37,295 bases of DNA, taken from the IMG/VR virus record IMGVR_UViG_3300022670_000360, positions 1 to 37,295 of that record; one strand, 5' to 3'. The notes beneath the pieces were generated by a model. It saw nothing but the letters and a program-made list of their open reading frames with translations. It had not been told where the DNA came from and did not search any database. Origin of the DNA: a virus (lineage: Duplodnaviria > Caudoviricetes). Both the position numbers and the translations under genes were made by a program. Below, piece by piece: positions 2,460 to 26,323 of the stretch (position 1 is its first letter; every line of letters starts with the position of its first letter).

Positions 2460-2535
2460 GCCCCCTCCAAGACCAAAGCGTAAACCGAAAACAACGCGCC
2501 GCACACCACGGAGGCCCCGTGGAAGCAAGCGATAA
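2443..2535 (+). CDS. 30-aa basic micropeptide MGGTSKPPPRPKRKPKTTRRTPRRPRGSKR
   Basis: Not in ORF track; GAGGA upstream; fills the gap between holin and endolysin. Confidence 0.5.
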   Translation: MGGTSKPPPRPKRKPKTTRRTPRRPRGSKR

Positions 2536-2983
2536 ACTTTCGCCTCACTTCACTCTCGGGGAGCTTACACGCAGTTCTACAGCGTTGAGGATGGGCATAG
2601 ACAATACCCCGGACGATAAAGAAATCAGTCGGTTAAAAACACTGTGCGCCAAAATCCTTGAACCGGTTAGGTTAAAATACGGTCCTTTCAGCCCAAGCTC
2701 CGGTTTCAGGTCAACGGAACTTAACAGACAGATAGGATCGCGCGATACCAGCCAGCATGTAAAAGGCGAAGCAGTTGACTTTGAGATTGTTGGTACACCT
2801 AACGCTGGACTGGCCGCGTGGATTGCTGGCAATCTGAAATTTGACCAATTGATTTTGGAGTTCTATACTCCTGATGAGCCGAATAGTGGTTGGATACATG
2901 TTAGTTTTGCTGAGAAAAACAGGCAACAGGTTTTAACGATTAACAAGGATGGGGTTTTCCCAGGTATCTTAGGAGACGATTAA
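2519..2983 (+). CDS. Endolysin, peptidase M15 family (Zn D-Ala-D-Ala carboxypeptidase-like)
   Basis: LSPHFTLGEL, SSGFRS, SQHVKGEAVD, FDQLILEF, WIHVS motifs; GGAGG RBS before GTG. Confidence 0.92.
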   Translation: MEASDKLSPHFTLGELTRSSTALRMGIDNTPDDKEISRLKTLCAKILEPVRLKYGPFSPSSGFRSTELNRQIGSRDTSQHVKGEAVDFEIVGTPNAGLAAWIAGNLKFDQLILEFYTPDEPNSGWIHVSFAEKNRQQVLTINKDGVFPGILGDD

Positions 2984-3066
2984 TGCCAGTACATACGCCA
3001 AAGGAACGGGCCAAGAGACGGCCAGCGAGACGCAGGAAGCCTGTCCCCAAAACCAAACGGAGATGA
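2983..3066 (+). CDS. 27-aa Arg/Lys-rich micropeptide MPVHTPKERAKRRPARRRKPVPKTKRR
   Basis: Not in ORF track; AGGAG RBS; TAATG coupling to endolysin stop. Confidence 0.6.
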   Translation: MPVHTPKERAKRRPARRRKPVPKTKRR

Positions 3067-3069
3067 TTA

Positions 3070-3264
3070 ATGGAAATTCTAAACATGCTTGGTCTTTCGA
3101 CTGAGACAGTTTCTATAATTATAGCGGCGATTTTGTTTTTCGAGAGAATTGCAAAGATTATCCCTGATGATGCAACTGGCATGGCTGGAATGACCCGCAA
3201 GCTTGCTAAGTTCCTGGGCGCATACACTTCCAACAGAAAAACCGACAAAGATAATGTAGGTTGA
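3070..3264 (+). CDS. Small membrane protein, second holin/antiholin candidate
   Basis: TM helix followed by IIPDD; lysis-cluster position. Confidence 0.5.
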   Translation: MEILNMLGLSTETVSIIIAAILFFERIAKIIPDDATGMAGMTRKLAKFLGAYTSNRKTDKDNVG

Positions 3265-3470
3265 TGGGGGGTATCCTCAAAGTTATCCAAGGGGCTTTTG
3301 CTTTCGTTAATGCATGGATGCGTAAAGGCCAGCAAGAAGCTGATATGAAAGCAGGGGCTAACGAACGAGAGATAACAGCCCACAACCGTCAGGATGAAGT
3401 TAGAAAAGACAAGGAAAAGGTTCGTGCTGAAAAGCGTGATGATACTTTTACTGGTAAGCGCCACCGTTAG
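3261..3470 (+). CDS. Putative i-spanin (Rz-like)
   Basis: Amphipathic N-terminus plus charged helix; overlaps a lipoprotein gene. Confidence 0.45.
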   Translation: MMGGILKVIQGAFAFVNAWMRKGQQEADMKAGANEREITAHNRQDEVRKDKEKVRAEKRDDTFTGKRHR

Positions 3471-3660
3471 CGCCTGCACGCCCTCTATCCGTATCAAGGT
3501 AGATAACACCTGTCCGGGGGGTTTCGTGCACGTATGGCTCTCTGAGGCCGCTGAGCAGGAGCTTCAATCCTACGATCTAACCATTGAAACCGCTGTCGAG
3601 CTAAATGCTGTAAAAGAAGATGTTTTAGACGGTAATGAACTTTACGAGCGCAACTGCTGA
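3439..3660 (+). CDS. Lipoprotein, putative o-spanin (Rz1-like)
   Basis: Signal MILLLVSATVSA-C with lipobox VSAC; overlaps preceding gene; start could be as far up as 3394. Confidence 0.6.
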   Translation: MILLLVSATVSACTPSIRIKVDNTCPGGFVHVWLSEAAEQELQSYDLTIETAVELNAVKEDVLDGNELYERNC

Positions 3661-3931
3661 TCCTGCTGGTCTGTTCGGGCTGCTTCTCTTTGATATGCGC
3701 CCCATAATTTATTTAATACCAAAACAGGAGAGGCTAAATGGTCGTAAGCAATAAAAAAATCTTGTTTAGGCTGTGATGCTGCAGCATATATTCTATATTC
3801 GAACATTTCAGGTTCGTTTTCTGACGGAAAATCTGCTTGAGTACAAACTTTAAGTCGCGAGCTCTTTAATTCCATACACAAAACTTCTCCGTCATGCGGG
3901 CCCCCACAAAATGAATATTTACTTTGCCCAT
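3642..3931 (-). CDS. Hypothetical protein with F-x-GGP-x-DG motif; probably frameshifted near 3901-3905
   Basis: Best start (ATG 3931, TGATG-coupled to ninB, AGGAG upstream) is out of frame with the GGPHDG body by one base at a G5 run. Confidence 0.5.
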
Positions 3932-4326
3932 CATCCTCTCCTTTGCATATCTTCAGGGTGAGGCAAGTGAATACCCAAATCAGTAGCACAAAACCTGCTT
4001 ATCGCATTCATAAAATCTCTCATCTCTCCCACCTTTAATTCCTTGATAGACAGACGCCGTTCTCTATCAACACCATCCAGGTCCGTATAGGCTTTCGCCA
4101 TAAGGAATTTGTCCTTGAATATTTTCGCCATATCATCTTTATCATAACCCAGTTCCGATCCTGCGTCTGACATCCAGCGCCAATAAAGATTACGTTGCCG
4201 CACACTCAACGAGTCTGAATGAAGGCTTATATCCACATCCCATTTCTTGTCAGGGTTAAGCTCACTCAGAAACTTGAGGGTATAAGCCAGTGTTTTACTA
4301 TCTGATATAGTGAGTTTATTCGCCAT
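3931..4326 (-). CDS. ninB: NinB/Orf-family recombination protein
   Basis: S-x-R-Q-x-N-LYW-x-W, ELGY, S-I-KEL-x-x-x-EM-x-DF, LGIHLPHP pattern. Confidence 0.75.
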   Translation of the reverse strand: MANKLTISDSKTLAYTLKFLSELNPDKKWDVDISLHSDSLSVRQRNLYWRWMSDAGSELGYDKDDMAKIFKDKFLMAKAYTDLDGVDRERRLSIKELKVGEMRDFMNAISRFCATDLGIHLPHPEDMQRRG

Positions 4327-4588
4327 GATACATCCAATAATTCCTTGTGGCCTCCCGATCCAGATTCACGTCATAAACCATCTCAAAAGCCTCTACCGAG
4401 CCAACAGCGTCATGGTACTGGGTGTGGTGGTCAGAACAGAGACAAGCCCCCCACCAGTGATTACGCGCAGGCAGTCCGGGAGGCATCTTGACGTGGTGAA
4501 ACACTCCCGGCGCTCCGCATACACAACAACCTCCGTCCATTACCGTGGAGTGGAAACGTCTTTGTAATGCTGTCGGACGTTGGCTCAT
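4316..4588 (-). CDS. HNH-like zinc nuclease (Ref/DUF968-like)
   Basis: GCCVCG...HH...CLCSDHH...H; start ATG 4588 TAATG-coupled. Confidence 0.7.
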   Translation of the reverse strand: MSQRPTALQRRFHSTVMDGGCCVCGAPGVFHHVKMPPGLPARNHWWGACLCSDHHTQYHDAVGSVEAFEMVYDVNLDREATRNYWMYHGE

Positions 4589-4854
4589 TAAGCATCCAGC
4601 ATCACATGAACATACCCATGACGCTGAGCACAAGGATTGTATGCAGGCATTCCAGCTAAAGCTTCATCACCTTCTTCACGAATAACCCACCCATTTTCTG
4701 TGCCACATGGGTTTTTGTCTTCAGCAAATTCAAGAATTGCTTCGTCGGGCCAGTCTCCGGGCACACAAACCTGCATATCAAAGCCACCAAACTTGGTAAC
4801 TTCTGCGCCGTCTTCCATTAATTTATCCCAATATTCTGATTTTACTTTACCCAT
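4588..4854 (-). CDS. Hypothetical protein
   Basis: GGAG RBS; QVCVP...NPCGT..GW...PC...H. Confidence 0.7.
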   Translation of the reverse strand: MGKVKSEYWDKLMEDGAEVTKFGGFDMQVCVPGDWPDEAILEFAEDKNPCGTENGWVIREEGDEALAGMPAYNPCAQRHGYVHVMLDA

Positions 4855-4957
4855 ATCAATTCTCCAATGTGTCCTAACCCCTCTCAGCGTTAAAAGGGAG
4901 AATGAGGCGCGGCAGAGGCTAGGACTTGGGGGTGTGTCGTTACGCCGCGCAGATTAG

Positions 4958-5203
4958 TTAGAAGTCTACTTTGTCATACATCATATTATGTCCTGGCGAA
5001 GTATCTTGCTGCTGTCCTTCTTCATCTTTCGGGGTAAACTTCATGCCAAGATATTTGCCTTTTGTCCCGTCATTGATCCAGCCACTTACCCAGTATTCCA
5101 CGCCGCCTATTAGGGCTGATCCTGTACGATCCGGGTGGCTGTCCTTGTCCTTCTTGTCGTTGACAAAAAGGCTTCCTGAGTTTGGTTTGTGTTCAAATGT
5201 CAT
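4958..5203 (-). CDS. Putative ssDNA-binding protein (DUF736-like OB fold)
   Basis: GSLF-x-N-x-K...HPD-x-TG...G-x-EYW-x-SGW...GKYL; acidic C-terminal tail ending in F; near SSAP. Confidence 0.7.
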   Translation of the reverse strand: MTFEHKPNSGSLFVNDKKDKDSHPDRTGSALIGGVEYWVSGWINDGTKGKYLGMKFTPKDEEGQQQDTSPGHNMMYDKVDF

Positions 5204-5444
5204 TGTTCATTCCAATCGTGTATCCCTGCTGGCCCGTGTTAATGAACCTATTGCCTTTAAAAACATTACCCAAAATTGATTTGGCGGTTTTGATCGCAGT
5301 TACAAGCTCGTCACTTTGGTGGCAGAGCGCAAGCCCGCGTTCGTCGTATAGATTGAGAGCCACAAAAGGAAACAGAGCGTCGCGCAAGGTTTGAATTTCC
5401 GCGTTTTTCTTTTTAACTAAGTCTTTCATTAAAGTGTCTGTCAT
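5193..5444 (-). CDS. Hypothetical protein
   Basis: Overlap-coupled within leftward operon. Confidence 0.6.
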   Translation of the reverse strand: MTDTLMKDLVKKKNAEIQTLRDALFPFVALNLYDERGLALCHQSDELVTAIKTAKSILGNVFKGNRFINTGQQGYTIGMNNDI

Positions 5445-6115
5445 TGTTCTTTCTCAAATTTTGCGTTGCTGATATTAATACGCTGCTGGTTTATCCTGTC
5501 CTCATAGCTCGGCACGTCACCACCACCGGCCATATATTCTGGTATCACGATTAGGAACCGTTCTATAAGTGGTTTAGAGGCTATCAGGAAGGCATCTAGC
5601 TGGTCTGTGTCCTCACATGCAGCGACTTCCTCAAAGAAGGTCTTGAAGGCTTTCTTGGCCTTTACAACACTTCCCTTGACGTTATCTGGCCGCTCCTCTT
5701 TAAATTCGTCTGCTTCCTGTTCTGAATAAACAAAACCGTGCAAGCCAATCAGTTTCAGAATAACCCTGTCCTTTGCCCGCTTTTCTGCCATGGCCCAAGG
5801 GTATGAGTTCTTGTTGTTCTTGGGTGCGGCCTCGCCTATTGACCATTCAGTTCTTTCCTCAACCATTTCCATTTCTAACTTTGCCGCACGGCCTACAATC
5901 TTCATCTCAACCTGTGCACTCCCAGTCACGCACACTGCTATATTGTCGGGCTCGGCGCTGCAAACAAACGGCTGGTCAAATATTATCCCTGCCTTTGTCG
6001 CAATCTGTTCAAGAACCTTGTGATATATAACTGCTGTGCCGTGGCAGTCCCACATGGCCGTTTCATCAAAGTCGTATTTCTCAAGGACTTCTTTTACGAA
6101 AGGTTCTATTTTCAT
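5441..6115 (-). CDS. Putative single-strand annealing recombinase (Rad52/Sak-like superfamily)
   Basis: WDCHG..HK..LE, SIGEA..KN..NSYP.AMAEKRAKDR.ILKL.G..YSE.EAD; context with SSB and ninB. Confidence 0.7.
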   Translation of the reverse strand: MKIEPFVKEVLEKYDFDETAMWDCHGTAVIYHKVLEQIATKAGIIFDQPFVCSAEPDNIAVCVTGSAQVEMKIVGRAAKLEMEMVEERTEWSIGEAAPKNNKNSYPWAMAEKRAKDRVILKLIGLHGFVYSEQEADEFKEERPDNVKGSVVKAKKAFKTFFEEVAACEDTDQLDAFLIASKPLIERFLIVIPEYMAGGGDVPSYEDRINQQRINISNAKFEKEQ

Positions 6116-6306
6116 TTCATTCCATCCAGTTTTTCTACAATATCAAGGCACATGCACTTGAGGGTTTCGATATAGGCTACGTCAACATCTGCCAATTTCA
6201 CGCCCTGCCGTCCGTATGAAGCGGCACGAACAGCTCGCTTTCCTTTGTTAAGATCATCATGCAGGACATCTAAATCTTGGAGAAATTCTTCATGTGCGCT
6301 CATCAC
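6112..6306 (-). CDS. Hypothetical protein
   Basis: Overlap-coupled, AAGGA RBS. Confidence 0.6.
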   Translation of the reverse strand: MMSAHEEFLQDLDVLHDDLNKGKRAVRAASYGRQGVKLADVDVAYIETLKCMCLDIVEKLDGMK

Positions 6307-6551
6307 ATTTCCTTACAGCCACGACTGGCGTTAGAATCGCCGCGTAGTTCTTTAAGATGTTTTGCTTCTTCTTTATCGTTTTCTTCTTCAAAGCGCCGTT
6401 CAATGCGTATCATGCAATCAGCAGCCAAATCATCAAACTCCCGCGCCAGATCAATAATCTCGTCATGCTCAAGCTTTACACCCACATCATTAAGTGTTTT
6501 GGTCATTGAGGCGAACATATCAGTGAGCTTTTCGGTTTCTGTGGTTTTCAT
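6303..6551 (-). CDS. Hypothetical acidic helical protein, first gene of leftward early operon
   Basis: AAGGGA RBS; downstream of sigma70-like promoter. Confidence 0.65.
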   Translation of the reverse strand: MKTTETEKLTDMFASMTKTLNDVGVKLEHDEIIDLAREFDDLAADCMIRIERRFEEENDKEEAKHLKELRGDSNASRGCKEM

Positions 6552-6575
6552 TTCATTCCCTTTCTGCTTTACATT

Positions 6576-6604
6576 ACTTTAGTTATGATTTACAGATAAT
6601 GCAA
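6576..6604 (-). promoter_or_regulatory. Sigma70-like leftward promoter
   Basis: TTGCAT-N17-TAAAGT on minus strand in a divergent intergenic region. Confidence 0.6.
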
Positions 6605-6628
6605 GACTTATTTTCAAAGGACGCAAAT

Positions 6629-6862
6629 ATGTCACCAGCAAAATACCTCGAGCAATCCCACTACAGAGACATGACTCATTTATCCATCGCTATGGATATC
6701 GTGGGTTTGGCCATATCATATCCAATGCTGCGCCGTAATATAATTGGCACGCATATGCCCTCTCAGGAGGCGTGGGAGGCGTGGGAGGATTTCACTCATT
6801 GCAAGGTCACGAAACATGATTTGGTTGACCAGCACTTTAAGTTTCTGGCAGAAAAAGAATGA
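6629..6862 (+). CDS. Cro-like HTH regulator
   Basis: Short, first gene of divergent rightward operon; G..MPS......ED.T..KVT..DL tail typical of Cro-like proteins. Confidence 0.6.
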   Translation: MSPAKYLEQSHYRDMTHLSIAMDIVGLAISYPMLRRNIIGTHMPSQEAWEAWEDFTHCKVTKHDLVDQHFKFLAEKE

Positions 6863-7155
6863 CCCGTCCAATTACAAACCGTAATTATCCAAGCGGGCTG
6901 CCGGTATTATATTTTGATGCGATAATTGGGTTAGCAGAAAGCGTGTCCAAAGCTATAGCCAACAAAATAACCCGTGAAGGAATTGTGCTGGGGTTCGAAA
7001 ACATGGAGCGGTTTATTGACTGTTCCTTTCTTTCGTTTTTCCCAGCCACTCGCAGAGGCGTAATGGAGGAAATATTTTTCATAAGTGTGAAAAACCGAAT
7101 ACATTATTGGCTGCCACGCTCGCGCACAAATGTTTGGAACGAGGATATTAATTAA
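6859..7155 (+). CDS. Hypothetical protein
   Basis: ATGA-coupled, fills the operon. Confidence 0.5.
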   Translation: MTRPITNRNYPSGLPVLYFDAIIGLAESVSKAIANKITREGIVLGFENMERFIDCSFLSFFPATRRGVMEEIFFISVKNRIHYWLPRSRTNVWNEDIN

Positions 7156-7494
7156 ATGAGCCGTCTGCTTGAAAACATAATCAATGCTGTCTCCAAGGAA
7201 ACCGGCATAACCCGTAAGGAGATAATGAACGGAGACAGCACTCGTAGGGTTACAAGCGCACGATACATGGTGGTTTATATTCTGCGTAAGCGTCATGGGT
7301 GGACATTCCCCGACATCGGGGAGGTATTGGGCAAGGAAGAATCAACCATGCGGTCCGCCTTTAACAGCATGTCTAGGCTTGTAAACAGAGGGAGGGTCCA
7401 AATCCCCGGAACCAACAAAAAAGAAATCAGGGCCCAAAAGATCGTGGACGAAATCAGCGAACATTTATTTGAAGCAATAGTGAGGGTAATATGA
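7156..7494 (+). CDS. Stand-alone DnaA domain-IV-like HTH protein
   Basis: II.AV....GI...EI....R.VT.AR...Y.LR...G.T.PDIG..LG.E.STM matches the DnaA C-terminal HTH pattern. Confidence 0.8.
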   Translation: MSRLLENIINAVSKETGITRKEIMNGDSTRRVTSARYMVVYILRKRHGWTFPDIGEVLGKEESTMRSAFNSMSRLVNRGRVQIPGTNKKEIRAQKIVDEISEHLFEAIVRVI

Positions 7495-7697
7495 AAACGA
7501 GGTGTGGAAAATGCGGGATGGGTTTTAGGATATGCAATCCCGAAACAGTTGACGGCAAAAAAGCTGAGAAATTTATTTGCGCCGTACCTGGATGTGAGCG
7601 TCCTTATTGGGAAGGCGAGAGAAAGCAGCCGTCTGTAATTGTCGGGATGACGCGTGAGGCTTACAAAGATTATTTGTCTATAACCCCCTACCCCTAA
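7491..7697 (+). CDS. Small zinc-finger protein
   Basis: CGKC...CAVPGC. Confidence 0.6.
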   Translation: MKTRCGKCGMGFRICNPETVDGKKAEKFICAVPGCERPYWEGERKQPSVIVGMTREAYKDYLSITPYP

Positions 7698-7705
7698 AGG
7701 AACGA

Positions 7706-7894
7706 ATGATGCGTAATAAATGGAGATTGAGTTACACGGTTTGGCCCGAAGTATGGCGTAGCGAAGGGACCTACAGGGATTATATGTATTGGTGGCAGGC
7801 GTGGACCGGCAAGACTTTTCGTATACTGGACAAATATTTTTATAATGGTGACACCGGCGATTACACCATAACCAACACCCCAGAGGAAGAATGA
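7706..7894 (+). CDS. Hypothetical Trp/Tyr-rich protein
   Basis: AAGGA RBS; coupled to next gene. Confidence 0.55.
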   Translation: MMRNKWRLSYTVWPEVWRSEGTYRDYMYWWQAWTGKTFRILDKYFYNGDTGDYTITNTPEEE

Positions 7895-8181
7895 TGGACT
7901 TAGTTTACATTAAATGGATTGACTCATTTGGCTGTAACGCTGGATGGACTACCATTGAGGATATAATGGATGAAGTCGAAATGAAAATCGAAAGTGTGGG
8001 CTGGGTTGCACAGGAAACCTCTAAATATATCTTACTAGTTCCTCACGTCCATGGGGCTGTGCAGTTAGGCAAAGATAGGCTTGCGAAAGAATCTGGGTGT
8101 GGTGATATGGCTATTCCTAAATCTGCTATCGTTGAACGAAGAATATTGACAATCCCGCTGATACAGCGTAAAAAGAAATAG
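7891..8181 (+). CDS. Conserved-type phage hypothetical protein
   Basis: LVYI.W.DS..GW...SVGW...IPK..I pattern. Confidence 0.7.
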   Translation: MMDLVYIKWIDSFGCNAGWTTIEDIMDEVEMKIESVGWVAQETSKYILLVPHVHGAVQLGKDRLAKESGCGDMAIPKSAIVERRILTIPLIQRKKK

Positions 8182-8306
8182 TGGGAGGGGTTCGTTAATT
8201 CGTTCCCTCATCCTGTCACGCTGGGGTCTAGGCCCCTCCTGCACTCTACCAAGTCGTGACACAGCTAGAAATAAGGCGTGACAACCTCAATGAAAAACAA
8301 TGCTAT

Positions 8307-8930
8307 ATATGATTTTGGTGAGCGCGGAAGTGAGCGGTTCGTTCCTGTTCTGAATGCCGCCATGCTCAGTATCGGGCGGCCTAATCTGAGCCGTGCTAGA
8401 AGTAACGACTGGCCCGCGTTCTCCAAAGTCATATGCGTGTCCTATGGACTGAATAAGGCAAGTGCCAAGGCCTTCGGGCCTAGGTTCTTAATACCCGTAC
8501 TAGAGGAAGGGCTTGCCGAATATCTTTTGGGCGCATTAGAGACAAGCTCCACTGAGCTACTAAGCCACTTCCCTGCTAGTGGTGTCTCGAAAAGCAGGGG
8601 ATTATTTGCTCTTATACCTAGCGTATGTAGAGTATTCGGGGTCGTGCTTCGGTGCGGCCCTAGCTATTTTGGGTTACCAACATTTTACCAGAACAAAGAT
8701 GTTCCCCTACCAAGGGGTCTATAAGTATGGTCACGTTCCGGGACTTCACCCCATCCCCTTGCTGGCTTGAATAGGCCGATAGGATAATGTGTCGCTAGAG
8801 AAAGATACTCAGGGCTGCTTGGTGCACTTACGCACAGACACGGTAAACGGGACTGAGAATATTCGTCATAGACCAGAGCGTTGACAAGAAGGGGGCTTCT
8901 TTCTCAGCGGGTGGGAAAGTTGTATTTAAA
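8307..8930 (+). ncRNA. Putative large structured ncRNA or RNA-primed origin element
   Basis: 21-position stem 8307-8327/8414-8434 with G-U pairs; two cUUCGg hairpins (8468-8481, 8639-8660); two pseudoknot-compatible pairings; 3' boundary uncertain. Confidence 0.65.
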
Positions 8931-8941
8931 CAAGGGCTAGA

Positions 8942-9454
8942 ATGAAAAAAAACTATTCTCATTTGTTCAAAAAACGCGCGGTTGCGTATTTAAAGCACAA
9001 GCACGGGCTGGCAGACGCTTACAAAATGAAGAACAGCGAATTGATGGTTATGATTGAAGCGGCGCTAGGACTAGAGACGCCCTGCGTAACCGGAAAGCAA
9101 AAACGCTACAAAATGATGTTTGGTCTGTTGCCGAAGCCGATACCAACGAAGAAAAAGAAGCCGAAGAAGCAGAACGAGAATAAGAAATACGAGAGGTTTT
9201 ATCAATCGGCACCATGGAGAATGGTTAGATATGACGCTTACGAGAAAAACGATGGCCGCTGTGAATGCTGCGGGCGTAGTGCCAAAGAAGGAATTTATCT
9301 AAACTGCGACCACATCAAGCCACTACGCGAGTTTTGGAAATTACGCCTAGACCCGGAGAACCTGCAAATACTTTGCAACGAATGTAATCACGGCAAAGGC
9401 AACAGATACTCAACAGACTGGCGAAAAGGGAAAGGTATGGAAAATGAGCTTTGA
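8942..9454 (+). CDS. HNH endonuclease with N-terminal extension
   Basis: FY.S..WR..R...CECCG...DHIKP...LD.ENLQ.LC.ECN.GKGN. Confidence 0.92.
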   Translation: MKKNYSHLFKKRAVAYLKHKHGLADAYKMKNSELMVMIEAALGLETPCVTGKQKRYKMMFGLLPKPIPTKKKKPKKQNENKKYERFYQSAPWRMVRYDAYEKNDGRCECCGRSAKEGIYLNCDHIKPLREFWKLRLDPENLQILCNECNHGKGNRYSTDWRKGKGMENEL

Positions 9455-10432: not shown

Positions 10433-10779
10433 TACTTCCCTTTCCAATTTCAGTTAACACCGCCTACGCTACGAACTGGAAGACCAAACGCAGGTTTCGG
10501 TCGAAAGAATACGAAACATGGCACAAAGCCGCGCAGGACGCGCTGTGGACACAAGCTATCCCCGACTGGTGTAAGGGCCCCATAAAACTGGAACTGGCTC
10601 TGGTACGCCCTGACAAGAGACGCAGAGATTTATCGAATTATGTGAAAGTTGTGGAGGATTTCTTGGTCGACATGAAAATCATAGAGGACGACAGCCAGAT
10701 TGAGCATTTAACCGTGTTCTGGTCCGAAGGCTTTGAAGGTGTTAAAATAACAATAACACCCCTAGAGCCGCAAGCATAA
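10429..10779 (+). CDS. rusA: RusA-family Holliday junction resolvase
   Basis: LPFP.SVN, RRRD.SN..K...D.L....I.DDSQI. Confidence 0.9.
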   Translation: MILPFPISVNTAYATNWKTKRRFRSKEYETWHKAAQDALWTQAIPDWCKGPIKLELALVRPDKRRRDLSNYVKVVEDFLVDMKIIEDDSQIEHLTVFWSEGFEGVKITITPLEPQA

Positions 10780-10894
10780 CCCCGCCAACAATCATGCCGC
10801 CAAGAATCGCAGGCGCGTTTGCGTACAATTTCTTCCAGAAACCAAGGGGTTCATAAGCCAATGACCTAATGTGTTTTTGGTAATCGTTGGTCAT
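10742..10894 (-). CDS. Left-arm unit 8: 50-aa protein with C-terminal TM helix
   Basis: AAGGA RBS right after CGCCCG site 10905. Confidence 0.65.
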   Translation of the reverse strand: MTNDYQKHIRSLAYEPLGFWKKLYANAPAILGGMIVGGVMLAALGVLLLF

Positions 10895-10911
10895 GAGGTC
10901 CTTTCGGGCGT

Positions 10912-11154
10912 TTAAGTTGATTTTAATTGTTGGGCTAATTCCACACATTGGTTAGCAGTACTCGCGCCTGTTACAGCGGAGAGTTTGACCATGCCTAAGC
11001 CGAAATGCTTTGGCGGTTTTGCGATAGCAGTCGTTGCCCACCCACTCAACTGCACCGCCAGCGCAGCTAACTTACTGGTGGGAGCCTCCGCTATTTGGTC
11101 GGTAAATATTTTGTCCCACTCAGGCGTCCATGTTTTTGGTTCTGGTTCTGGCAT
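10912..11154 (-). CDS. Left-arm unit 7: hypothetical protein
   Basis: GGAGG RBS right after site 11167. Confidence 0.7.
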   Translation of the reverse strand: MPEPEPKTWTPEWDKIFTDQIAEAPTSKLAALAVQLSGWATTAIAKPPKHFGLGMVKLSAVTGASTANQCVELAQQLKST

Positions 11155-11182
11155 CGTCACCTCCATCGGGCGTTAGTGTAAG

Positions 11183-11374
11183 TTAATCTTTAGGCGTTAT
11201 TCGCTGGTAATCTGTGTAAACACAGGCGGGAGCAATTTGATTGGCGAATTGAAATTCATCTTCATCTAATTTCTGATTACCAGAAAGTGTTAAGTGTTGT
11301 CCCGTTTCTTTGTCTTCAAAGATAACATCAAAGTTGTCATTGTTGTATGTGCAGATGCTCATTGTTAATTTCAT
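11183..11374 (-). CDS. Left-arm unit 6: hypothetical protein
   Basis: Follows site 11387. Confidence 0.7.
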   Translation of the reverse strand: MKLTMSICTYNNDNFDVIFEDKETGQHLTLSGNQKLDEDEFQFANQIAPACVYTDYQRITPKD

Positions 11375-11400
11375 CTTCTATCCAATCGGGCGTTTAAAAG

Positions 11401-11556
11401 TTATTCTGCTATCTCGCTCTGCTCGGCCTCTGTTACTAATTCAACAACGACTGACCCCGGTATAGAAACCTCTACGCCGTTAACAACAAAAAGAAGATCA
11501 CCTGATAAATCAAAATTATAATTGACGTGGCCATTTTCAAAATCCTTGTGGTGCAT
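11401..11556 (-). CDS. Left-arm unit 5: 51-aa protein MHHKDFENGHVNYNFDLSGD...
   Basis: Not in ORF track; GGAG RBS after site 11566; stop abuts next site. Confidence 0.7.
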   Translation of the reverse strand: MHHKDFENGHVNYNFDLSGDLLFVVNGVEVSIPGSVVVELVTEAEQSEIAE

Positions 11557-11577
11557 AATAGTCTCCGGGCGTTTGTG

Positions 11578-11784
11578 TTAGTCTTCCAGGTAGAGAGATG
11601 TTTCCGCACTGACCGTCTGGGTTTCTTCGCCGCTCTCTTCTTTGGCATCTACAGGAAAAGTCTGCCTGACCTTCAAGGACGTAACAACGCCATCCATCGC
11701 GGCGACTTCAATAGCAGTATTTAGCTCTATTACCGCTTTGTGAATAGCATTCCGATAGCCAAGTGCTTCGTGTGTATCAATCAT
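11578..11784 (-). CDS. Left-arm unit 4: hypothetical protein
   Basis: GGAG RBS after site 11808. Confidence 0.7.
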   Translation of the reverse strand: MIDTHEALGYRNAIHKAVIELNTAIEVAAMDGVVTSLKVRQTFPVDAKEESGEETQTVSAETSLYLED

Positions 11785-11821
11785 CTTAGTTCTCCATTGT
11801 GCCCAATCGGGCGTTTAAAAG

Positions 11822-11986
11822 TTATTTAGTTAACGGCACAGCAGCCGAGCCGTTTAACAGGGCCACGCGAGATATTGCGTCGGCTTCGTCTATGTGGTCG
11901 CTCAGAGATTCAAAATGACCATCAGGCCGTGTAAAACCGACCGTCCACAAGTTTGGTTCTCTTTCTGTCTGTATCATCGTGTGCAT
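11822..11986 (-). CDS. Left-arm unit 3: 54-aa protein MHTMIQTEREPNLWTVGFTRPDGHFESLSDH...RVALLNG
   Basis: Not in ORF track; GGAG RBS after site 11996. Confidence 0.75.
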   Translation of the reverse strand: MHTMIQTEREPNLWTVGFTRPDGHFESLSDHIDEADAISRVALLNGSAAVPLTK

Positions 11987-12009
11987 AATAGTCTCCGGGC
12001 GTTTAAAAG

Positions 12010-12543
12010 TTATTGCGCTCTCGGTATTGGCGGCTGGATTTTCATTAAATCCTGACCGTCGAATAATTTGATTGCAACCATTTGAGCAATGTTAGCACGA
12101 GCCTCTTTCACCGCATCGTTTTTAACGTCATCGAGAACCGCTCTAAATTCTTTTGTGAGGGCGACAAGAATAATGTCGTTCATCATTTCCTTGAGCCCCT
12201 TGATATTTTTGTTGCCCCAACTTTGGTTATTCTTTGGCTCCGCCGTGGCCCACACATTAATTGCCTCATCGATAATATTTTTGAGGGTGTGTTTGCCGTC
12301 GTCGAACCGTATGCCACGCCTCATAATCTTTGCAACAGTATCGTCGATCATTTTGGTGACTGTTGCCAATGCCTCCGTCTTGATTTCGTCTATGACGGGC
12401 TTTTCAAGTGTGGTGTAAATGCGGGAAGCTAGTTCATGGACCACTTCGCCCTTAAGAAACTCATTGAAGGTTGGTCCTTCGCTGTATTCGTCGCCGCGAT
12501 ACCATTCTTCTACATCAATTTCAAACTTTACTATTGTCATCAT
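12010..12543 (-). CDS. Left-arm unit 2: 177-aa helical protein
   Basis: AAGGAGG RBS after site 12553; the longer start in the ORF track overlaps unit 1. Confidence 0.75.
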   Translation of the reverse strand: MMTIVKFEIDVEEWYRGDEYSEGPTFNEFLKGEVVHELASRIYTTLEKPVIDEIKTEALATVTKMIDDTVAKIMRRGIRFDDGKHTLKNIIDEAINVWATAEPKNNQSWGNKNIKGLKEMMNDIILVALTKEFRAVLDDVKNDAVKEARANIAQMVAIKLFDGQDLMKIQPPIPRAQ

Positions 12544-12559
12544 TACCTCCTTCGGGCGG

Positions 12560-12736
12560 TTAAATTGATTTTTCGCCACGCGCTTTCGCGAGGGCTTTAG
12601 TAACCATATCCTTTGTTTTGCCGTATAATATAAACACGTTTTTTTCTGCGATAAGCCGCTCGTTTTCGAATAAGATGTGCTCAAGCGCCTCGTACATATC
12701 AGGAGCAGCGGCGGCTAGTGTGTCTTTATTATCCAT
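12560..12736 (-). CDS. Left-arm unit 1: AAAPD-x-x-EAL...ALAKARG motif protein
   Basis: GGAG RBS after site 12750; motif common in small phage proteins. Confidence 0.75.
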   Translation of the reverse strand: MDNKDTLAAAAPDMYEALEHILFENERLIAEKNVFILYGKTKDMVTKALAKARGEKSI

Positions 12737-12777
12737 CTTGTTCTCCAATCGGGCGTCTTAATATTTCAATTCAATTC

Positions 12778-12814
12778 TTGACACCCTTATACATTTATCA
12801 TAATGTGGTGTCAA
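12778..12814. promoter_or_regulatory. Palindromic overlapping divergent promoter/operator
   Basis: TTGACACC...GGTGTCAA inverted repeat; minus strand TTGACA-N17-TATAAG; plus strand TTGACA followed by CATAAT. Confidence 0.7.
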
Positions 12815-12845
12815 TTCATAATTAAACAATAGTGGAATAAAGTTT

Positions 12846-13340
12846 ATGGGCGAAAAAATAGGGTACATACAGAGGCGGTCCCGCACTATTACGCCGGAAC
12901 AGCAGACACAAGAGCTTCTCGCGTTGGGATGCCAGCAGATATACGAAGACCTTGATGATTTTCTTTCTGAGGCCACCTTGCGCGAGGATGATATGCTCAT
13001 GGTTTGGTCTATTGGTATCATAGGTCGGGTAAACATTACCAGGGCGTTTCTAGCTGCGGCCAAGGCCAATTGCAGCGGCATATACAGTGCGAAGGCCAAG
13101 CGTTTTTATTCTCTTGATTTGCCCCACGCTCAGACGATTCACGATGCCTATGAGGAAATGAAACAGCATGAAGATAAGGTGCGCTCAGAGGCCACGAAAG
13201 GCAAATCCGGGCGGCAACCCTCCGGCGCATGGGATAAGCAAGCTGACATACGCGCTCTAGCCGATGACGGGGTACATATTGACGACCTGGCTATCCGGTT
13301 TGGGGCTAGTTCTGCCACAATACGAAGGATAATCAAATGA
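12846..13340 (+). CDS. Degenerate small serine recombinase (resolvase/invertase-like) with C-terminal HTH
   Basis: IGY...Q...L...GC..IY, LR..D.L.V.....GR, then GR.P and a Hin-type HTH; canonical YxRVS and DRLGR are altered. Confidence 0.75.
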   Translation: MGEKIGYIQRRSRTITPEQQTQELLALGCQQIYEDLDDFLSEATLREDDMLMVWSIGIIGRVNITRAFLAAAKANCSGIYSAKAKRFYSLDLPHAQTIHDAYEEMKQHEDKVRSEATKGKSGRQPSGAWDKQADIRALADDGVHIDDLAIRFGASSATIRRIIK

Positions 13341-13489
13341 GCGAAAAACAAATAGAAGCGTCAAGACCCATGGTTTCTTTGGGGGCCGCTATTCTTGTAT
13401 CACAATTAAGCAAAAAACCTATCTATGTGGTGGACAAAGATGGAAATAAAACCCTGCTGGTTCACCCTTATTTGGAGCAACACAAATGA
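13337..13489 (+). CDS. Right-arm unit: 50-aa MSEKQIEASRP...
   Basis: Not in ORF track; ATGA-coupled at both ends. Confidence 0.65.
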   Translation: MSEKQIEASRPMVSLGAAILVSQLSKKPIYVVDKDGNKTLLVHPYLEQHK

Positions 13490-13776
13490 GCGACAACCCA
13501 CAAGAAATATTGGATCCAGAAACGCGCAAACAGATTGACGCGATAAATAAGCGCCTAAAGACTGATGCCGCGTTAGAAAATGATTTACTTGGTGCGTTTG
13601 CAATCGGGGGTCTGACAGATGCAGGCTATGTTGTGATTGGGCCAGAAGCAATTGAACGTTTAGTTCTGGAATTTTGGCGGCGTGGTTCTGTCCCTAATGA
13701 ACAATGGGTCGCGGTCTCGTATGAACGTCGGGACAAACTTCGGGAGCAAATAATGGCAATGATTGGAACTTTTTAG
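13486..13776 (+). CDS. Right-arm unit: hypothetical protein
   Basis: ATGAGC start, GGAG RBS. Confidence 0.7.
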   Translation: MSDNPQEILDPETRKQIDAINKRLKTDAALENDLLGAFAIGGLTDAGYVVIGPEAIERLVLEFWRRGSVPNEQWVAVSYERRDKLREQIMAMIGTF

Positions 13777-14076
13777 ATGAGCGCCGTTGACATTTTTGAT
13801 TTGGTTAATCAGGAGGATTTACCGGAAAATATTCGGATTTCTTTGAAGACCGACAGAAACGATGTTCTTGGACAAGCCATTCTCGATTTATTCGCTATCA
13901 AAAACGTCCTCACTTTAGACGAAGTTATTTTAGGCTTGTGGCGGCGCTCAAAAATAACTCTTAAACGCAGTCAGGTTAACACAAAGCTTTACAATATGAC
14001 GCGCTTTGGAGACCAATCATTAATCTCTGTTGTCGGCAAACGAGGCTGTTGGTCGGCCAAAAAGAAAGGCAACTAA
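13777..14076 (+). CDS. Right-arm unit: winged-helix-like protein
   Basis: LTLDEV...L.R.....KR.QV..KLY.M......V.G.RG.W resembles a wHTH. Confidence 0.6.
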   Translation: MSAVDIFDLVNQEDLPENIRISLKTDRNDVLGQAILDLFAIKNVLTLDEVILGLWRRSKITLKRSQVNTKLYNMTRFGDQSLISVVGKRGCWSAKKKGN

Positions 14077-14077
14077 G

Positions 14078-14359
14078 ATGAGCCACCTAGGCTATTCAAA
14101 AAATGAATGCGGGACGCGCATTGCACTTCATAAATGCGACACATGCGGCATTGAATATACGGTGACTGCCCCGAAGGCAGATTATAGTCCCGAAAATTTC
14201 CAAGATTGTCTGGCCCCTGAGTGTGCCAGTTATGACGTAAATCGGGACATGGATTTGTTATTTATGACAGACGATGAGATTGCCCGCGAAAAAAAGATTG
14301 TGCCTATTAATCTAAAGGCCAGACGTGCGGCATTGCAGAGGGAGTTAATAAACAAATGA
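14078..14359 (+). CDS. Right-arm unit: zinc-ribbon protein
   Basis: CDTCG...CLAPEC; ATGAGC start at 14078 after AAAGG. Confidence 0.7.
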   Translation: MSHLGYSKNECGTRIALHKCDTCGIEYTVTAPKADYSPENFQDCLAPECASYDVNRDMDLLFMTDDEIAREKKIVPINLKARRAALQRELINK

Positions 14360-14511
14360 GCGATGTTGAGAAATATATACAGAACCAGAAAAATCGCGGC
14401 ATGTGGTTTCCAGCGCCTCAGTGGGCTTGCCAGTGTGAGGTGATGGCCCGACATCAAAAGGTTATTGCTGAGATGCAATATCGCAATCACATATTGGAGT
14501 TACAGAGATGA
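14356..14511 (+). CDS. Right-arm unit: 51-aa MSDVEKYIQNQ...
   Basis: Not in ORF track; GGAG RBS; ATGA-coupled. Confidence 0.65.
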   Translation: MSDVEKYIQNQKNRGMWFPAPQWACQCEVMARHQKVIAEMQYRNHILELQR

Positions 14512-14717
14512 GCGATAGCATTTTTGCGAACCCAACCACCGGCAAAAACCTCCGGGCTTGTGGGGGCGTGGCTCCTCCGCCCCGCACACTAGACAATGTT
14601 CTGGGGGCTCGCATGTTACCTAGACCCATTAGTGTTGTCGTGGCCTCGCCCTCTCTTTGCGAGGCGGCACGGGAGATTGTCGAGGGAAAAAGCAAAATTA
14701 TTAAGGAAAGCAAATGA
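14508..14717 (+). CDS. Right-arm unit: hypothetical protein
   Basis: ATGAGC start, GGAG RBS. Confidence 0.55.
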   Translation: MSDSIFANPTTGKNLRACGGVAPPPRTLDNVLGARMLPRPISVVVASPSLCEAAREIVEGKSKIIKESK

Positions 14718-14857
14718 GCCCGACTGACAAAGCATTAAGAATCTTAGAAATTGAGACGTTGGAAAAGTGGCAGTTTCGGCTGTCCTCGGTCCCACCCAAA
14801 AAGATGTTAAAGGCCCTTACGGCGGCGATTAAATCATTGGAAAGTGAAATTTTATAA
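14714..14857 (+). CDS. Right-arm unit: 47-aa MSPTDKALRILE...
   Basis: Not in ORF track; AAGGA RBS; coupled at both ends. Confidence 0.6.
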   Translation: MSPTDKALRILEIETLEKWQFRLSSVPPKKMLKALTAAIKSLESEIL

Positions 14858-15186
14858 TGAGCGATTTGGTTAAAGAAGAATTAGAACGCCTGGGGACATC
14901 AAGGACGATCAAAGACGCCAAACCTCTGGATTACGAGCCGTGGGCCGAGAAGAAGGAAACGAAGATGAGCGATAACACTTTTATCATTGACCACATCAAC
15001 GGGGACAAACCCATCGGTAAAGATACGCGGGTGCGTTTCCAAATCAGCAAACATAATAAGATAGAGGTTTATATGAACCCCAAAGGTAATCTGGTTATTC
15101 ACGCCGTTAGTGATTGCATCGACGATTTCATCATGGCCCCCTGCGTGTCCAACGAAATTGAGGTCGGTTTTGGAGTTTTGAAATGA
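14857..15186 (+). CDS. Right-arm unit(s): apparent in-frame fusion of two MSD-starting units (second start 14965)
   Basis: Internal AAGGA...AAGATGAGCGA at 14965, in frame. Confidence 0.65.
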   Translation: MSDLVKEELERLGTSRTIKDAKPLDYEPWAEKKETKMSDNTFIIDHINGDKPIGKDTRVRFQISKHNKIEVYMNPKGNLVIHAVSDCIDDFIMAPCVSNEIEVGFGVLK

Positions 15187-15347
15187 GCGAGCAAATTTGT
15201 AAAATAGAAGAGAGGGGCGGCAAATTTTATGCTGTTCGGGTAGTGCGTCCTTCTTTTCGTCTTGAAGCCAATAACCGCGAAGAGGCTGAACAGAAAGCAG
15301 TCAAAGCAATGGAAGACTATCACGAACTTTCAATGAGAATGGGATAA
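15183..15347 (+). CDS. Right-arm unit: 54-aa MSEQICKIEERGGKFY...
   Basis: Not in ORF track; GGAG RBS. Confidence 0.65.
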   Translation: MSEQICKIEERGGKFYAVRVVRPSFRLEANNREEAEQKAVKAMEDYHELSMRMG

Positions 15348-15351
15348 ACAA

Positions 15352-15651
15352 ATGAGCGATGAAGTCATCAAGGAACAAGCTAAAGAGATTGAGGAATTGA
15401 AAGCTCGTATCTACGAGTATCACAGAGTTTGGCTTATTGGCGAACTTGATATGAGGAACGCCGGTGGTGTTTCGGATAGAACAATGTCCGAAATCATTTG
15501 TAACCGGGCAGAGATAACCAAACTGCGGGAGGCTTTGAATATTGCTCGCAAGGAAATACAGAGCCGGGATGGTGACACGTTGCCAATGGATATAGCAGCC
15601 GGGGACGCCTGCGTATTAGACGATGAAGCACTTAATGGAGGCCAACACTAA
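15352..15651 (+). CDS. Right-arm unit: coiled-coil hypothetical protein
   Basis: ATGAGC start. Confidence 0.7.
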   Translation: MSDEVIKEQAKEIEELKARIYEYHRVWLIGELDMRNAGGVSDRTMSEIICNRAEITKLREALNIARKEIQSRDGDTLPMDIAAGDACVLDDEALNGGQH

Positions 15652-15911
15652 TGAGCGACGATGTAGTGCATCTTGGGATGGTAGCACGCGATGGTAAAAT
15701 GTTCACGCCAGAACAAACATTGCGGCAATGCCTTGAGGATTTAGGCAAGAACGGGGCTTTTGAAAAAGGCAAAAAGCTTATTGTTATATGCTTAGATGAT
15801 ACTGACGATTGTTACCGGGTGTCTTGGCAACAGTGTGGAATGAAAATGTCTGAATGCTTGGCGCTATGCGAAATAGCAAAAACAAAATTTAAGAGCGAAA
15901 TGGAATATTAA
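15651..15911 (+). CDS. Right-arm unit: hypothetical protein
   Basis: GGAGG RBS, ATGAGC start. Confidence 0.75.
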   Translation: MSDDVVHLGMVARDGKMFTPEQTLRQCLEDLGKNGAFEKGKKLIVICLDDTDDCYRVSWQQCGMKMSECLALCEIAKTKFKSEMEY

Positions 15912-15912
15912 G

Positions 15913-16212
15913 ATGAGCGACAAATTGATGATTGAGGGGACCACCATTGACCCTAAATTTATTGTTGAATCGTTGCCCCTCAGTGAGCTTTGCGAAGTTA
16001 TGCGGGATATGCAAAACGATCTTTTGGAGTTCTGGGCCGAGCAACGCGCACAACAAATTATAAAGTTCTTGTCGGATCACGATTTAGAGGCCAAGCAAGC
16101 CAGAATTATAGAGCACCGCAGAAGGGAATTTATATTCAGTGTGGTTGATCCCATGATTAATAGAATGCTGGTGCAAATCCGCCAATTTTCAGAACAGGAG
16201 CAACTTTTATGA
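15913..16212 (+). CDS. Right-arm unit: hypothetical protein
   Basis: ATGAGC start. Confidence 0.7.
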   Translation: MSDKLMIEGTTIDPKFIVESLPLSELCEVMRDMQNDLLEFWAEQRAQQIIKFLSDHDLEAKQARIIEHRRREFIFSVVDPMINRMLVQIRQFSEQEQLL

Positions 16213-16255
16213 CGAGCACTGTGCAATTTTTGCAACAACCGAAAGGAACCAGAAG

Positions 16256-16408
16256 ATGACCATACTTAAAAAACTAACACAGGAAGACCAAAACACACTG
16301 TTGCGTAAGGTGAAAAGAATACACCCCGGACCAAATCAGATGTTTGGGAATTTTGAAGATATACTTAGTGAGTGTGGGCTCGAAATTGTGCGAAAGAACG
16401 CGGGCTAA
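16256..16408 (+). CDS. Right-arm terminal unit: 50-aa MTILKKLTQED...
   Basis: Not in ORF track; AAAGGA RBS; followed by a last ATGAGC at 16410. Confidence 0.6.
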   Translation: MTILKKLTQEDQNTLLRKVKRIHPGPNQMFGNFEDILSECGLEIVRKNAG

Positions 16409-16416
16409 AATGAGCA

Positions 16417-16557
16417 CTATTTTCGTTCAAGCTTGATATAACTTCTTATCGCCCTGGCAATGGCCGCAGATTTATTCTTTTGTTTCTCATGCCATGCGCG
16501 TAGATCACCAGCTAGATAGAAGGTAATTTGTTTGCCTCTGTTTAATTTCCGTTTCAT
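16417..16557 (-). CDS. 46-aa ribbon-helix-helix-like DNA-binding protein
   Basis: Not in ORF track; MKRKLNRGKQITFYLAGDLRAWHEKQKNKSAAIARAIRSYIKLERK has a beta strand with alternating hydrophobics followed by two helices. Confidence 0.6.
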   Translation of the reverse strand: MKRKLNRGKQITFYLAGDLRAWHEKQKNKSAAIARAIRSYIKLERK

Positions 16558-20622: not shown

Positions 20623-20898
20623 ATGGAATATACTACGTATAATTTAATTAAAGACAGCGCCTTACATAATTGGAGTGATTTTAGTTTGGATGTTTCGGTG
20701 TCTGTTCTTAGGCGTGTTGTCGGGGTCAGCGTGATGTTTCTTTATTGGGGATTGTCCATGAAGCGGATTCGCGGGGGGAAGCTTAGTTCTGGGTATACAA
20801 TACACGCAGGCCCTATATTCTTATATTACCAGACCACTGAGTTCCTACCCGCACATGAGCTTCGCTACTTTAAAATGCGTGTAGAGATCATCAAATAA
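20623..20898 (+). CDS. Hypothetical protein
   Basis: AGGAG RBS. Confidence 0.55.
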   Translation: MEYTTYNLIKDSALHNWSDFSLDVSVSVLRRVVGVSVMFLYWGLSMKRIRGGKLSSGYTIHAGPIFLYYQTTEFLPAHELRYFKMRVEIIK

Positions 20899-20934
20899 TA
20901 GTATAACACATTAAGGGGTGTATAGGAGGTTATT

Positions 20935-21177
20935 ATGAATTTTGTATATTCGTTAGAGGACGGAGTTGGGGTTGATCTTTCCCAAGTCGTTGGTTCGTCC
21001 GAGCCGCTTATAACTACGGTTTTCGGCGAGCCTGAGAAACAGCAGTTAGTTCGTCTTATGCTACGCTCGGGCCATACTTACGAAGTGTGCACATCTCGTG
21101 CCGACATGGAAAAATTCACAAAGTTCTTTAAAAAGATGCGCCCTGAATTTTTTAGAGAATACCACGAAACAGTATAA
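20935..21177 (+). CDS. Hypothetical protein
   Basis: AGGAGG RBS. Confidence 0.7.
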   Translation: MNFVYSLEDGVGVDLSQVVGSSEPLITTVFGEPEKQQLVRLMLRSGHTYEVCTSRADMEKFTKFFKKMRPEFFREYHETV

Positions 21178-21188
21178 CATAAAGCCCC

Positions 21189-26313: not shown

Positions 26314-26323
26314 GAGATGAGCT

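Follow-up and report, generated by a model that had tools for sequence, protein, structure and literature searches.

Integrons combine a tyrosine recombinase, IntI, with the sites attI and attC, and hold promoterless cassettes behind one promoter. In a window of 37,295 nt (the whole stretch of DNA that was analysed, one circularly permuted phage record, G000, with a 128-nt terminal repeat, found in a marine sediment run and in no RNA data set listed), we find a locus at which two back-to-back rows of small unrelated genes, eight leftward and fourteen rightward, 22 in all, flank a recombinase-shaped gene. The locus resembles an integron in that unrelated promoterless small genes lie behind one putative promoter region beside a recombinase-fold gene and in that gene content is wholly different between relatives; unlike an integron, its neighbouring enzyme has a serine-family fold and is dead in two of the three phages that carry the arrangement. 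Tyrosine integrase (PF00589) was detected in none of five records searched, the window included. A reading of the junctions as attC sites was set aside: they measure 15-45 nt around a core of 7-8 nt, their flanking AAC words are direct and not inverted, no long palindrome of the attC type is present and Rfam matches were to tRNAs only.

The described system closest to this locus is that of the PeSLs of the T4-type phages RB49 and phi1, which, as sections of the original report set out, are short conserved intergenic elements with GC stem-loops that flank ORFans of variable regions and act as exchange points with no dedicated recombinase identified (PMC2839356). The same sections liken PeSLs to integrons and cite T4 deletions at GGGC/GCCC. 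The window likewise has short junction elements, orphan genes, GC stem-loops and no dedicated recombinase identified. As described in those sections, PeSLs each carry a sigma70 promoter and a terminator, whereas the units of the window are promoterless and have a common core of 6-8 nt, and unlike PeSLs they use two different words for two divergent arms, with a resolvase-fold gene at the hub. By analogy, the locus would work most like PeSL shuffling combined with the boundary-sequence model, as far as the relevant parts of the two reports describe them (PMC2839356, PMC3233612). The SAS/ESAS of Cluster K mycobacteriophages, in the account given in parts of PMC3203893, are one-orientation repeats of unknown function just upstream of the starts of non-structural genes. 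All eight left-arm genes have such an oriented repeat close upstream of the start; by that account SAS overlap the Shine-Dalgarno sequence and are spread over half the genome, whereas the words of the window either precede the ribosome-binding site (RBS) or make up the first two codons, and are packed into two arms. No description of a resolvase-centred double array was found in the literature searched, which was largely without subscription journals and excluded supplements.

The two arms sit between a replication block (HNH, replication initiator, methylase, RusA) and the late genes. On the minus strand, CGCCCG occurs at plus-strand positions 10905, 11167, 11387, 11566, 11808, 11996, 12553 and 12750, one copy ahead of each of the eight leftward open reading frames (ORFs), in the form ACGCCCG at seven sites and CCGCCCG at one. 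A left junction reads stop codon, AT-rich tail, AAACGCCC core, leader, RBS, ATG. On the plus strand, ATGAGC is itself the start of 13 of the 14 rightward ORFs, whose starts run from 13337 to 15913, and the fourteenth, at 16256, begins ATGACC; here the RBS of the next gene lies within the end of the preceding one. Among 55 gene starts elsewhere in the window ATGAGC was found at six and CGCCC within 45 nt upstream at one, giving Fisher probabilities for array versus other starts of about 2e-9 for CGCCCG and about 9e-9 for ATGAGC, values to be read with the facts that the control starts were hand-picked and the motifs chosen after being seen. A preliminary description of this DNA had claimed a CGCCCG ahead of all eight leftward genes, ATGAGC at almost all rightward starts, and a boundary regularity peculiar to this locus; all three claims are borne out, and the two-motif pattern is real and well above chance. 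The description had also placed a palindromic promoter region at 12778-12814. The palindrome is there, a 37-nt block TTGAC-N27-GTCAA made of two opposed TTGACA (-35-like) hexamers, but a promoter scan called neither hexamer as a promoter and the -10 matches are imperfect; judged from its letters, the block is likely a pair of overlapping divergent promoters and/or an operator. Promoter and terminator matches were no commoner than in shuffles (9 versus 10.8 and 9 versus 6.7, respectively), and none was systematic at the junctions.

The same frame recurs in two further phages. A portal search yielded three loci, G001 among them, and a 16-mer scan yielded twelve, of which G001 and G003 are arrays. 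The portal and capsid proteins of G001 are 61% and 68% identical to those of the window, and its divergent array has seven ACGCCC sites, followed by an intact resolvase, a C5 methylase, ten genes starting with ATGAGC (10 of the 11 downstream genes) and an orphan terminal ATGAGC. Among the contents of this divergent array are a gene resembling PAPS reductase and a tRNA-Pro/tRNA-His pair; at L005 2032-2188, tRNA-Pro(TGG) and tRNA-His(GTG) stand within the ACGCCC array directly behind a site. G003 has virion genes that do not match those of the window; it carries a central gene 39% identical to that of the window, a 37-nt block of the same geometry and ten sites, and its right arm is weaker, with four ATGAGC and three ATGAGT starts. 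Upstream sites and downstream ATGAGC number 8 and 14 in the window, 7 and 13 in G001 and 10 and 4 in G003 (the phage counts allowed one extra site variant), while the maxima at 80 other resolvase loci were three upstream sites (65 loci with 3 kb of flank) and four downstream ATGAGC (68 with 3 kb). Three phages with two kinds of virion backbone thus carry the frame, and their arrays share no gene: in a comparison of 59 array proteins (23 from the window, 16 from G001 and 20 from G003) no cross-phage blastp match was found at E<=0.01. The check proposed in the preliminary description, whether homologues are flanked by motif-delimited arrays of differing content, came out in its favour, as the G003 protein, a member of the same clade, and the intact G001 resolvase are both flanked by the two kinds of motif array, filled with wholly different genes. 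Of 80 capsid-related records 49 were searched, and none of the 49 has a full resolvase-like gene (one gave a 28-aa helix-turn-helix (HTH)-only match, E 5.7e-4); therefore the module is no hallmark of the capsid family and moves independently of the backbone.

An exact 19-mer scan of viral contigs gave no match, and the 34 matches of a 17-mer scan of metagenome contigs, none with more than four same-strand CGCCCG within 2.5 kb, were taken as chance; the one match of a single-protein locus search (L001) was spurious. Chance combined with ordinary ATGA translational coupling might itself be thought to produce the words, as several right-arm starts overlap the preceding stop as ATGA and six of the 55 other starts are ATGAGC, but many ATGAGC starts overlap no stop, the probability is about 1e-8 per arm, and recurrence in two more phages, with 10 of 11 genes in G001, refutes an explanation that we regard as scarcely credible.

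The gene at the hub (12846-13340, plus strand) had been described as recombinase-like, and this holds for its fold, though probably not for function as a working recombinase. Its AlphaFold model (pLDDT 88.6, built with 14 sequences) has Sin, gamma-delta and Tn3 resolvases as top Foldseek matches (E 6.5e-7 to 5e-6) and its Atlas placement agrees with a small serine-recombinase fold; a resolvase catalytic-domain fold is followed by a C-terminal HTH, a fold and domain order common to Tn3/gamma-delta resolvase, Sin and Hin/Gin (PF00239 plus HTH_7). Pfam matches of the protein fall below cut-off, a PDB sequence search gave no match and INPHARED gave only weak invertase matches. Those enzymes keep the nucleophile Ser, the first Arg and DRLxR, all lost in the 31 homologues of the window protein, none of which keeps GYxRxS or DR[LI]xR. 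In an hhalign alignment (probability 95), Arg7, Ser9, Asp66 and Arg67 of an intact relative face Gln9, Arg11, Gly57 and Ile58 of the window protein, and the loop bearing Arg44 of the G001 enzyme is deleted in its clade. A tree sets the 31 homologues on one side of a 100/100 branch and 22 intact enzymes on the other, so that they likely form an old, conserved and catalytically dead clade of at least 31 resolvase-fold phage proteins that has kept the HTH. Alignments of the clade yielded either no pattern fit for use or no locus that was confirmed. As the catalytic Ser and Arg are lost and no clade member keeps either motif, the window protein is unlikely to be a working integrase. The corresponding enzyme of G001, by comparison, is catalytically complete by sequence, with a PF00239 score of 146 bits, above cut-off, and both YxRxS and DRLxR.

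In Tn3 the tnpR gene adjoins divergent promoters, and resolvases of the Tn3 type repress there. The window gene likewise lies beside putative divergent promoters, and its position and retained HTH suggest that the dead resolvase is likely a DNA-binding regulator of the back-to-back promoters and so of both arms. A comparable viral fate is that of poxvirus F16/OPG61, described in part of a preprint that also names DRLxR as a serine-recombinase catalytic motif: an exapted serine recombinase with the catalytic motif lost and the intact form in a deep branch (10.1101/2022.11.22.517515). Like the dead clade it is a virus-exapted, inactivated enzyme; unlike the window protein it belongs to a eukaryotic virus, stands, by that account, without cassette arrays and is of unrelated origin as far as known.

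Are the words seams at which genes are exchanged? Of 300 pairs among 25 sites, 13 have a common left half (>=7 nt), 19 a common right half (>=5 nt) and one both, with about 0.8 expected if the halves were independent; left and right halves have not been copied as one piece, the outcome predicted for crossovers within the core. Within the left arm a 19-nt left half is common to three junctions and a right half, reaching to the end of the second codon, to two. In a second sample, at 85% identity, four contigs share only 21-28 nt motif pieces with the window, their sites being separated by 110 and 867 nt of other sequence, and a start like that of the outermost left-arm gene, L8, stands by eye behind a different left half; at 80% identity, one of eight contigs matches the end of the fourth right-arm gene, R4, up to and including the whole of the ATGAGC that follows, and the match stops there although 98 nt of the contig remain. 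These are single contigs of other phages, among the rows listed. Because junction halves assort independently and second-sample contigs diverge at the motifs, the motifs are likely gene-exchange seams. Two cultured phages have homologues of the twelfth right-arm gene, R12, outside arrays and amid late genes, with the starts ATGACA and ATGACG; therefore ATGAGC is not a family trait there.

Our preferred reading, to which we give a little better than an even chance, is a two-armed accessory-gene region in which the words are swapping seams likely used by general phage or host recombination and the dead resolvase likely regulates the promoters. Successive AAACGCCC cores would bound a left-arm unit, made up of leader, RBS, ORF and AT-rich tail; in the right arm the bounds would be successive ATGAGC words, with each ORF containing at its end the RBS for whatever gene follows. 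A crossover within either word would then place an incoming gene, with an RBS, under one of the two promoters, hence always expressed. Such crossovers, over 6-24 nt of identity, may proceed through single-strand annealing or an illegitimate pathway, and by this short-homology recombination units bounded by the words would be lost, gained and reordered, while the dead resolvase, on the Tn3 analogy, would bind near the promoters and repress or balance both arms. The seam role is partly shown, whereas the recombining enzyme and the regulator role are inferred.

Several observations weigh against this reading. The second-sample pieces measure 21-131 nt at depths of 2.7-16, and such joints often stem from other organisms or repeats; with no nearly identical phage to compare with the window, most breakpoints cannot be located. 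An R4 homologue in G003 (about 26260-26572) lies outside both arrays, yet has an AAACGCC..GGGC leader and an ATGAGC start. An identity of 6 nt, as in ATGAGC, is short for annealing proteins, and family searches gave no assignment to a candidate annealing gene at 5441-6115. The regulator role is argued from position and HTH retention alone, and only two of the 31 dead-clade genes are visible in genomic context. Lastly, the slot is occupied in G001 by an intact resolvase that falls in the tree with other intact enzymes, themselves neighbours of motif-delimited arrays; our reading treats this association as incidental.

The left-arm word is a shortened version of a leader hairpin that is widespread in phages. 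Its fuller form, AACGCCC-loop-GGGCATAAC, was found at 75 viral loci, with a resolvase within 7 kb at three only, those of G001 and G003. In 49 whole records, obtained from 50 of the 75 loci, neither PF00239 nor the dead-clade profile was detected, the latter search having no positive control of its own; 13 of these 49 are >=90% complete, and many are single-site and some chance matches, which also tells against our preferred reading. At L189 (about 4400-9400, oriented) seven hairpins with fixed flanks and different covarying stems precede successive genes, with no resolvase detected. A leader element TAAC-hairpin-(A/T)(C/T)AAC before an RBS is also present in L163, L157, L164 and L156. Separately, L176, L195, L212 and L211 have 12-15 same-strand ATGAGC in 11-14 kb without a resolvase, few of them gene starts in L195 and L211. 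A role resembling lambda boxB antitermination was set aside, since the loops vary in length and sequence, and an Rfam search (L189-type loci were outside its scope) gave only the tRNAs of G001.

These hairpins raise the possibility that the words are expression signals only, acting in translation initiation, RNA processing or protein binding in the manner of SAS, and that illegitimate recombination is random while selection keeps the joints that preserve the signal. An RBS and a start follow 20 of 50 distinct hairpin contexts against a background of 8.6%, several loops are UUCG or GNRA, which together with the covarying stems suggests RNA structure, and the relevant part of PMC3233612 gives selection for gene function as the usual alternative to exchange targeted to boundaries. 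However, seven of the eight window sites have lost the 3' arm of the hairpin and kept the core, a site precedes the tRNA pair in G001, a gene-less orphan ATGAGC ends the right arm in two phages, and the junction halves assort independently. We consider this account unlikely, although it is compatible with our preferred reading and the two are not mutually exclusive.

The ends of REP or IS200/IS605 elements resemble the TAAC-plus-hairpin motif. A host-supplied HUH (Y1) transposase that reads the motif like such ends could accordingly move the units as single strands, which would be in keeping with a hairpin that varies in stem sequence but has a constant tetranucleotide at its base; we hold this to be very improbable, as PF01797 was detected in none of five phage records, most window sites have no hairpin and ATGAGC would be left unexplained.

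The shuffling may instead be the work of intact resolvases of the kind found in G001. Using the G001 enzyme we found, at 38-40% identity, eight prophage records (L043-L050, about 2500-6640) in which near-identical intact small serine recombinases stand before an excisionase-like gene and are preceded by a hypervariable co-directional array of small genes joined by a C-rich TAAC..AAACGC motif. Units of 147-297 nt, 91-99.6% identical, are found in varying positions and terminate on the motif: of 68 alignment ends, 42 fall within 30 nt of a related junction motif against a background of 11%, a count in which the motif was chosen by eye and the ends are not independent. In a tree with 20 of the 80 control resolvases, the G001 and L043 enzymes group at 100/98. 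These data support an integron analogue in which intact serine recombinases like that of G001 cut out and integrate units at the motifs, with the window either retaining a relic enzyme or depending on an intact one in trans, as do the catalytically complete resolvase between both arrays of G001, the finding of such arrays at none of the 80 other resolvase loci, and the direct-repeat orientation and orphan terminal sites, which fit an excision/insertion cycle. Serine site-specific recombination requires dyad sites of about 28 bp with fixed spacing. The position profile of the sites shows only a short asymmetric core, of 7-8 nt, with hairpin loops of 4-7 nt, variable hairpin spacing and no fixed dyad; moreover one enzyme would need two unrelated words, the arrays of the window and G003 are wholly different though both enzymes are dead, the motif forms arrays also without a detected resolvase, and contigs of the source run, which cannot show absence, contain no joint or variant. 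We therefore regard the analogue as distinctly unlikely, and equally doubtful its fuller version, in which an intact subfamily (G001, L043-L050) would capture and reorder promoterless genes and tRNAs at very short sites of two divergent arrays and a widespread dead derivative would be kept as a regulator or as a recruiter of the intact enzyme. Of the earlier proposal of a gene-shuffling platform linked to a serine recombinase, the shuffling gains support, as content differs across relatives and the few visible breakpoints fall on motifs; the link to the enzyme is weakened by the dead window protein, sites without a fixed dyad and arrays of the motif with no detected resolvase.

The left-arm features, all on the minus strand, are given here from the hub outwards. 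The promoter-proximal site (12750-12755), whose AT-rich flank is common to G003 and second-sample contigs, precedes L1 (12560-12736, 58 aa), a weak match to phrog_1273, and the variant CCGCCCG site (12553-12558) precedes L2 (12010-12543, 177 aa), a weak match to phrog_26090, both families being of unknown function. The next four genes have no annotation. L3 (11822-11986, 54 aa) follows a site (11996-12014) with a left half of the TAACTTTTAA type and a right half of the GGAGACTATT type; L4 (11578-11784, 68 aa) follows the sole window copy with a complete GCCC-loop-GGGC hairpin (11803-11826); the site of L5 (11551-11574, gene 11401-11556, 51 aa) has a right half identical, up to the end of the second codon, to that of L3, with a different left half; and that of L6 (11382-11405, gene 11183-11374, 63 aa) is identical over 24 nt to that of L4. 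L7 (10912-11154, 80 aa), also without annotation, has a site (11167-11181) of 15 nt identical to one in G001, and the two halves of the last site (10899-10917) recur separately in G001, ahead of L8 in the window (10742-10894, 50 aa), which has a hydrophobic C-terminus and overlaps the end of the convergent RusA gene.

The right arm, on the plus strand, comprises R1-R13 (13337-16212), starting at 13337, 13486, 13777, 14078, 14356, 14508, 14714, 14857, 14965, 15183, 15352, 15651 and 15913, and R14 (16256-16408, 50 aa), the ATGACC start. R8 and R9 lie in one stop-free frame (14857-15186), R9 with its own RBS and ATGAGC, and residues 30-104 of the joint frame weakly match DUF7239. Homologues of R4 and R12 exist elsewhere, as noted, and none of R3 was found in the sequences searched. 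At 16209-16259 a 16-codon frame starting ATGACGAGCACT links R13 to R14 through ATGA overlaps and resembles an ATGAGC start with three extra bases. The orphan terminal ATGAGC (16410-16415, plus strand), an arrangement also present in G001, opens a frame of eight codons only and lies 1 nt from the stop codon of a convergent 46-aa ORF (16417-16557, minus strand). The preliminary description had a small ribbon-helix-helix gene closing the right end; the convergent ORF does close the arm, while the ribbon-helix-helix label, given by eye, is unconfirmed, Pfam and PHROG searches having given no match and a single-sequence monomer model one long helix (pTM 0.40).

Pfam, PHROG and PADLOC searches assigned no confident function to any of the 22 array genes. 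The anti-defence role suggested earlier for them finds no support, none of 24 proteins having matched in PADLOC, whose models cover defence systems and not anti-defence proteins. Elsewhere in the window are the virion genes (terminase, portal, major head, tail and ejection), with a cytidylyltransferase (28560-29243; CTP_transf_3, E 3e-29) amid them, and, at 20882-20908 and 21153-21179, a common AGTATAACA ending upstream of two successive genes before the terminase, possibly a promoter or chance. The candidate annealing gene (5441-6115, minus strand) adjoins SSB and NinB; its nearest named Atlas clusters are Sak/Rad52-like (0.89-0.90), a lead only, and it is 41% identical over 73 aa to a G001 protein labelled exonuclease by PHROGs.

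The coincidence of module and gene boundaries in phages is an old open question, framed in the portion of PMC3233612 drawn on here as boundary-targeted exchange versus random joints with selection. The present locus offers a compact test of it, with two defined words, a frame conserved across different virion backbones, and a natural contrast, at one and the same position, between an intact resolvase (G001) and dead ones (window and G003). Two further gains are a clade of catalytically dead resolvase-fold phage proteins with at least 31 members and a set of orphan accessory genes, among them a DNA methylase and tRNAs in G001, that merits screening. The prophage loci L043-L050 are a tractable system for testing the role of the recombinase, and if it is true that the intact enzyme drives the shuffling, this would be a gene-capture system of a new enzyme class.

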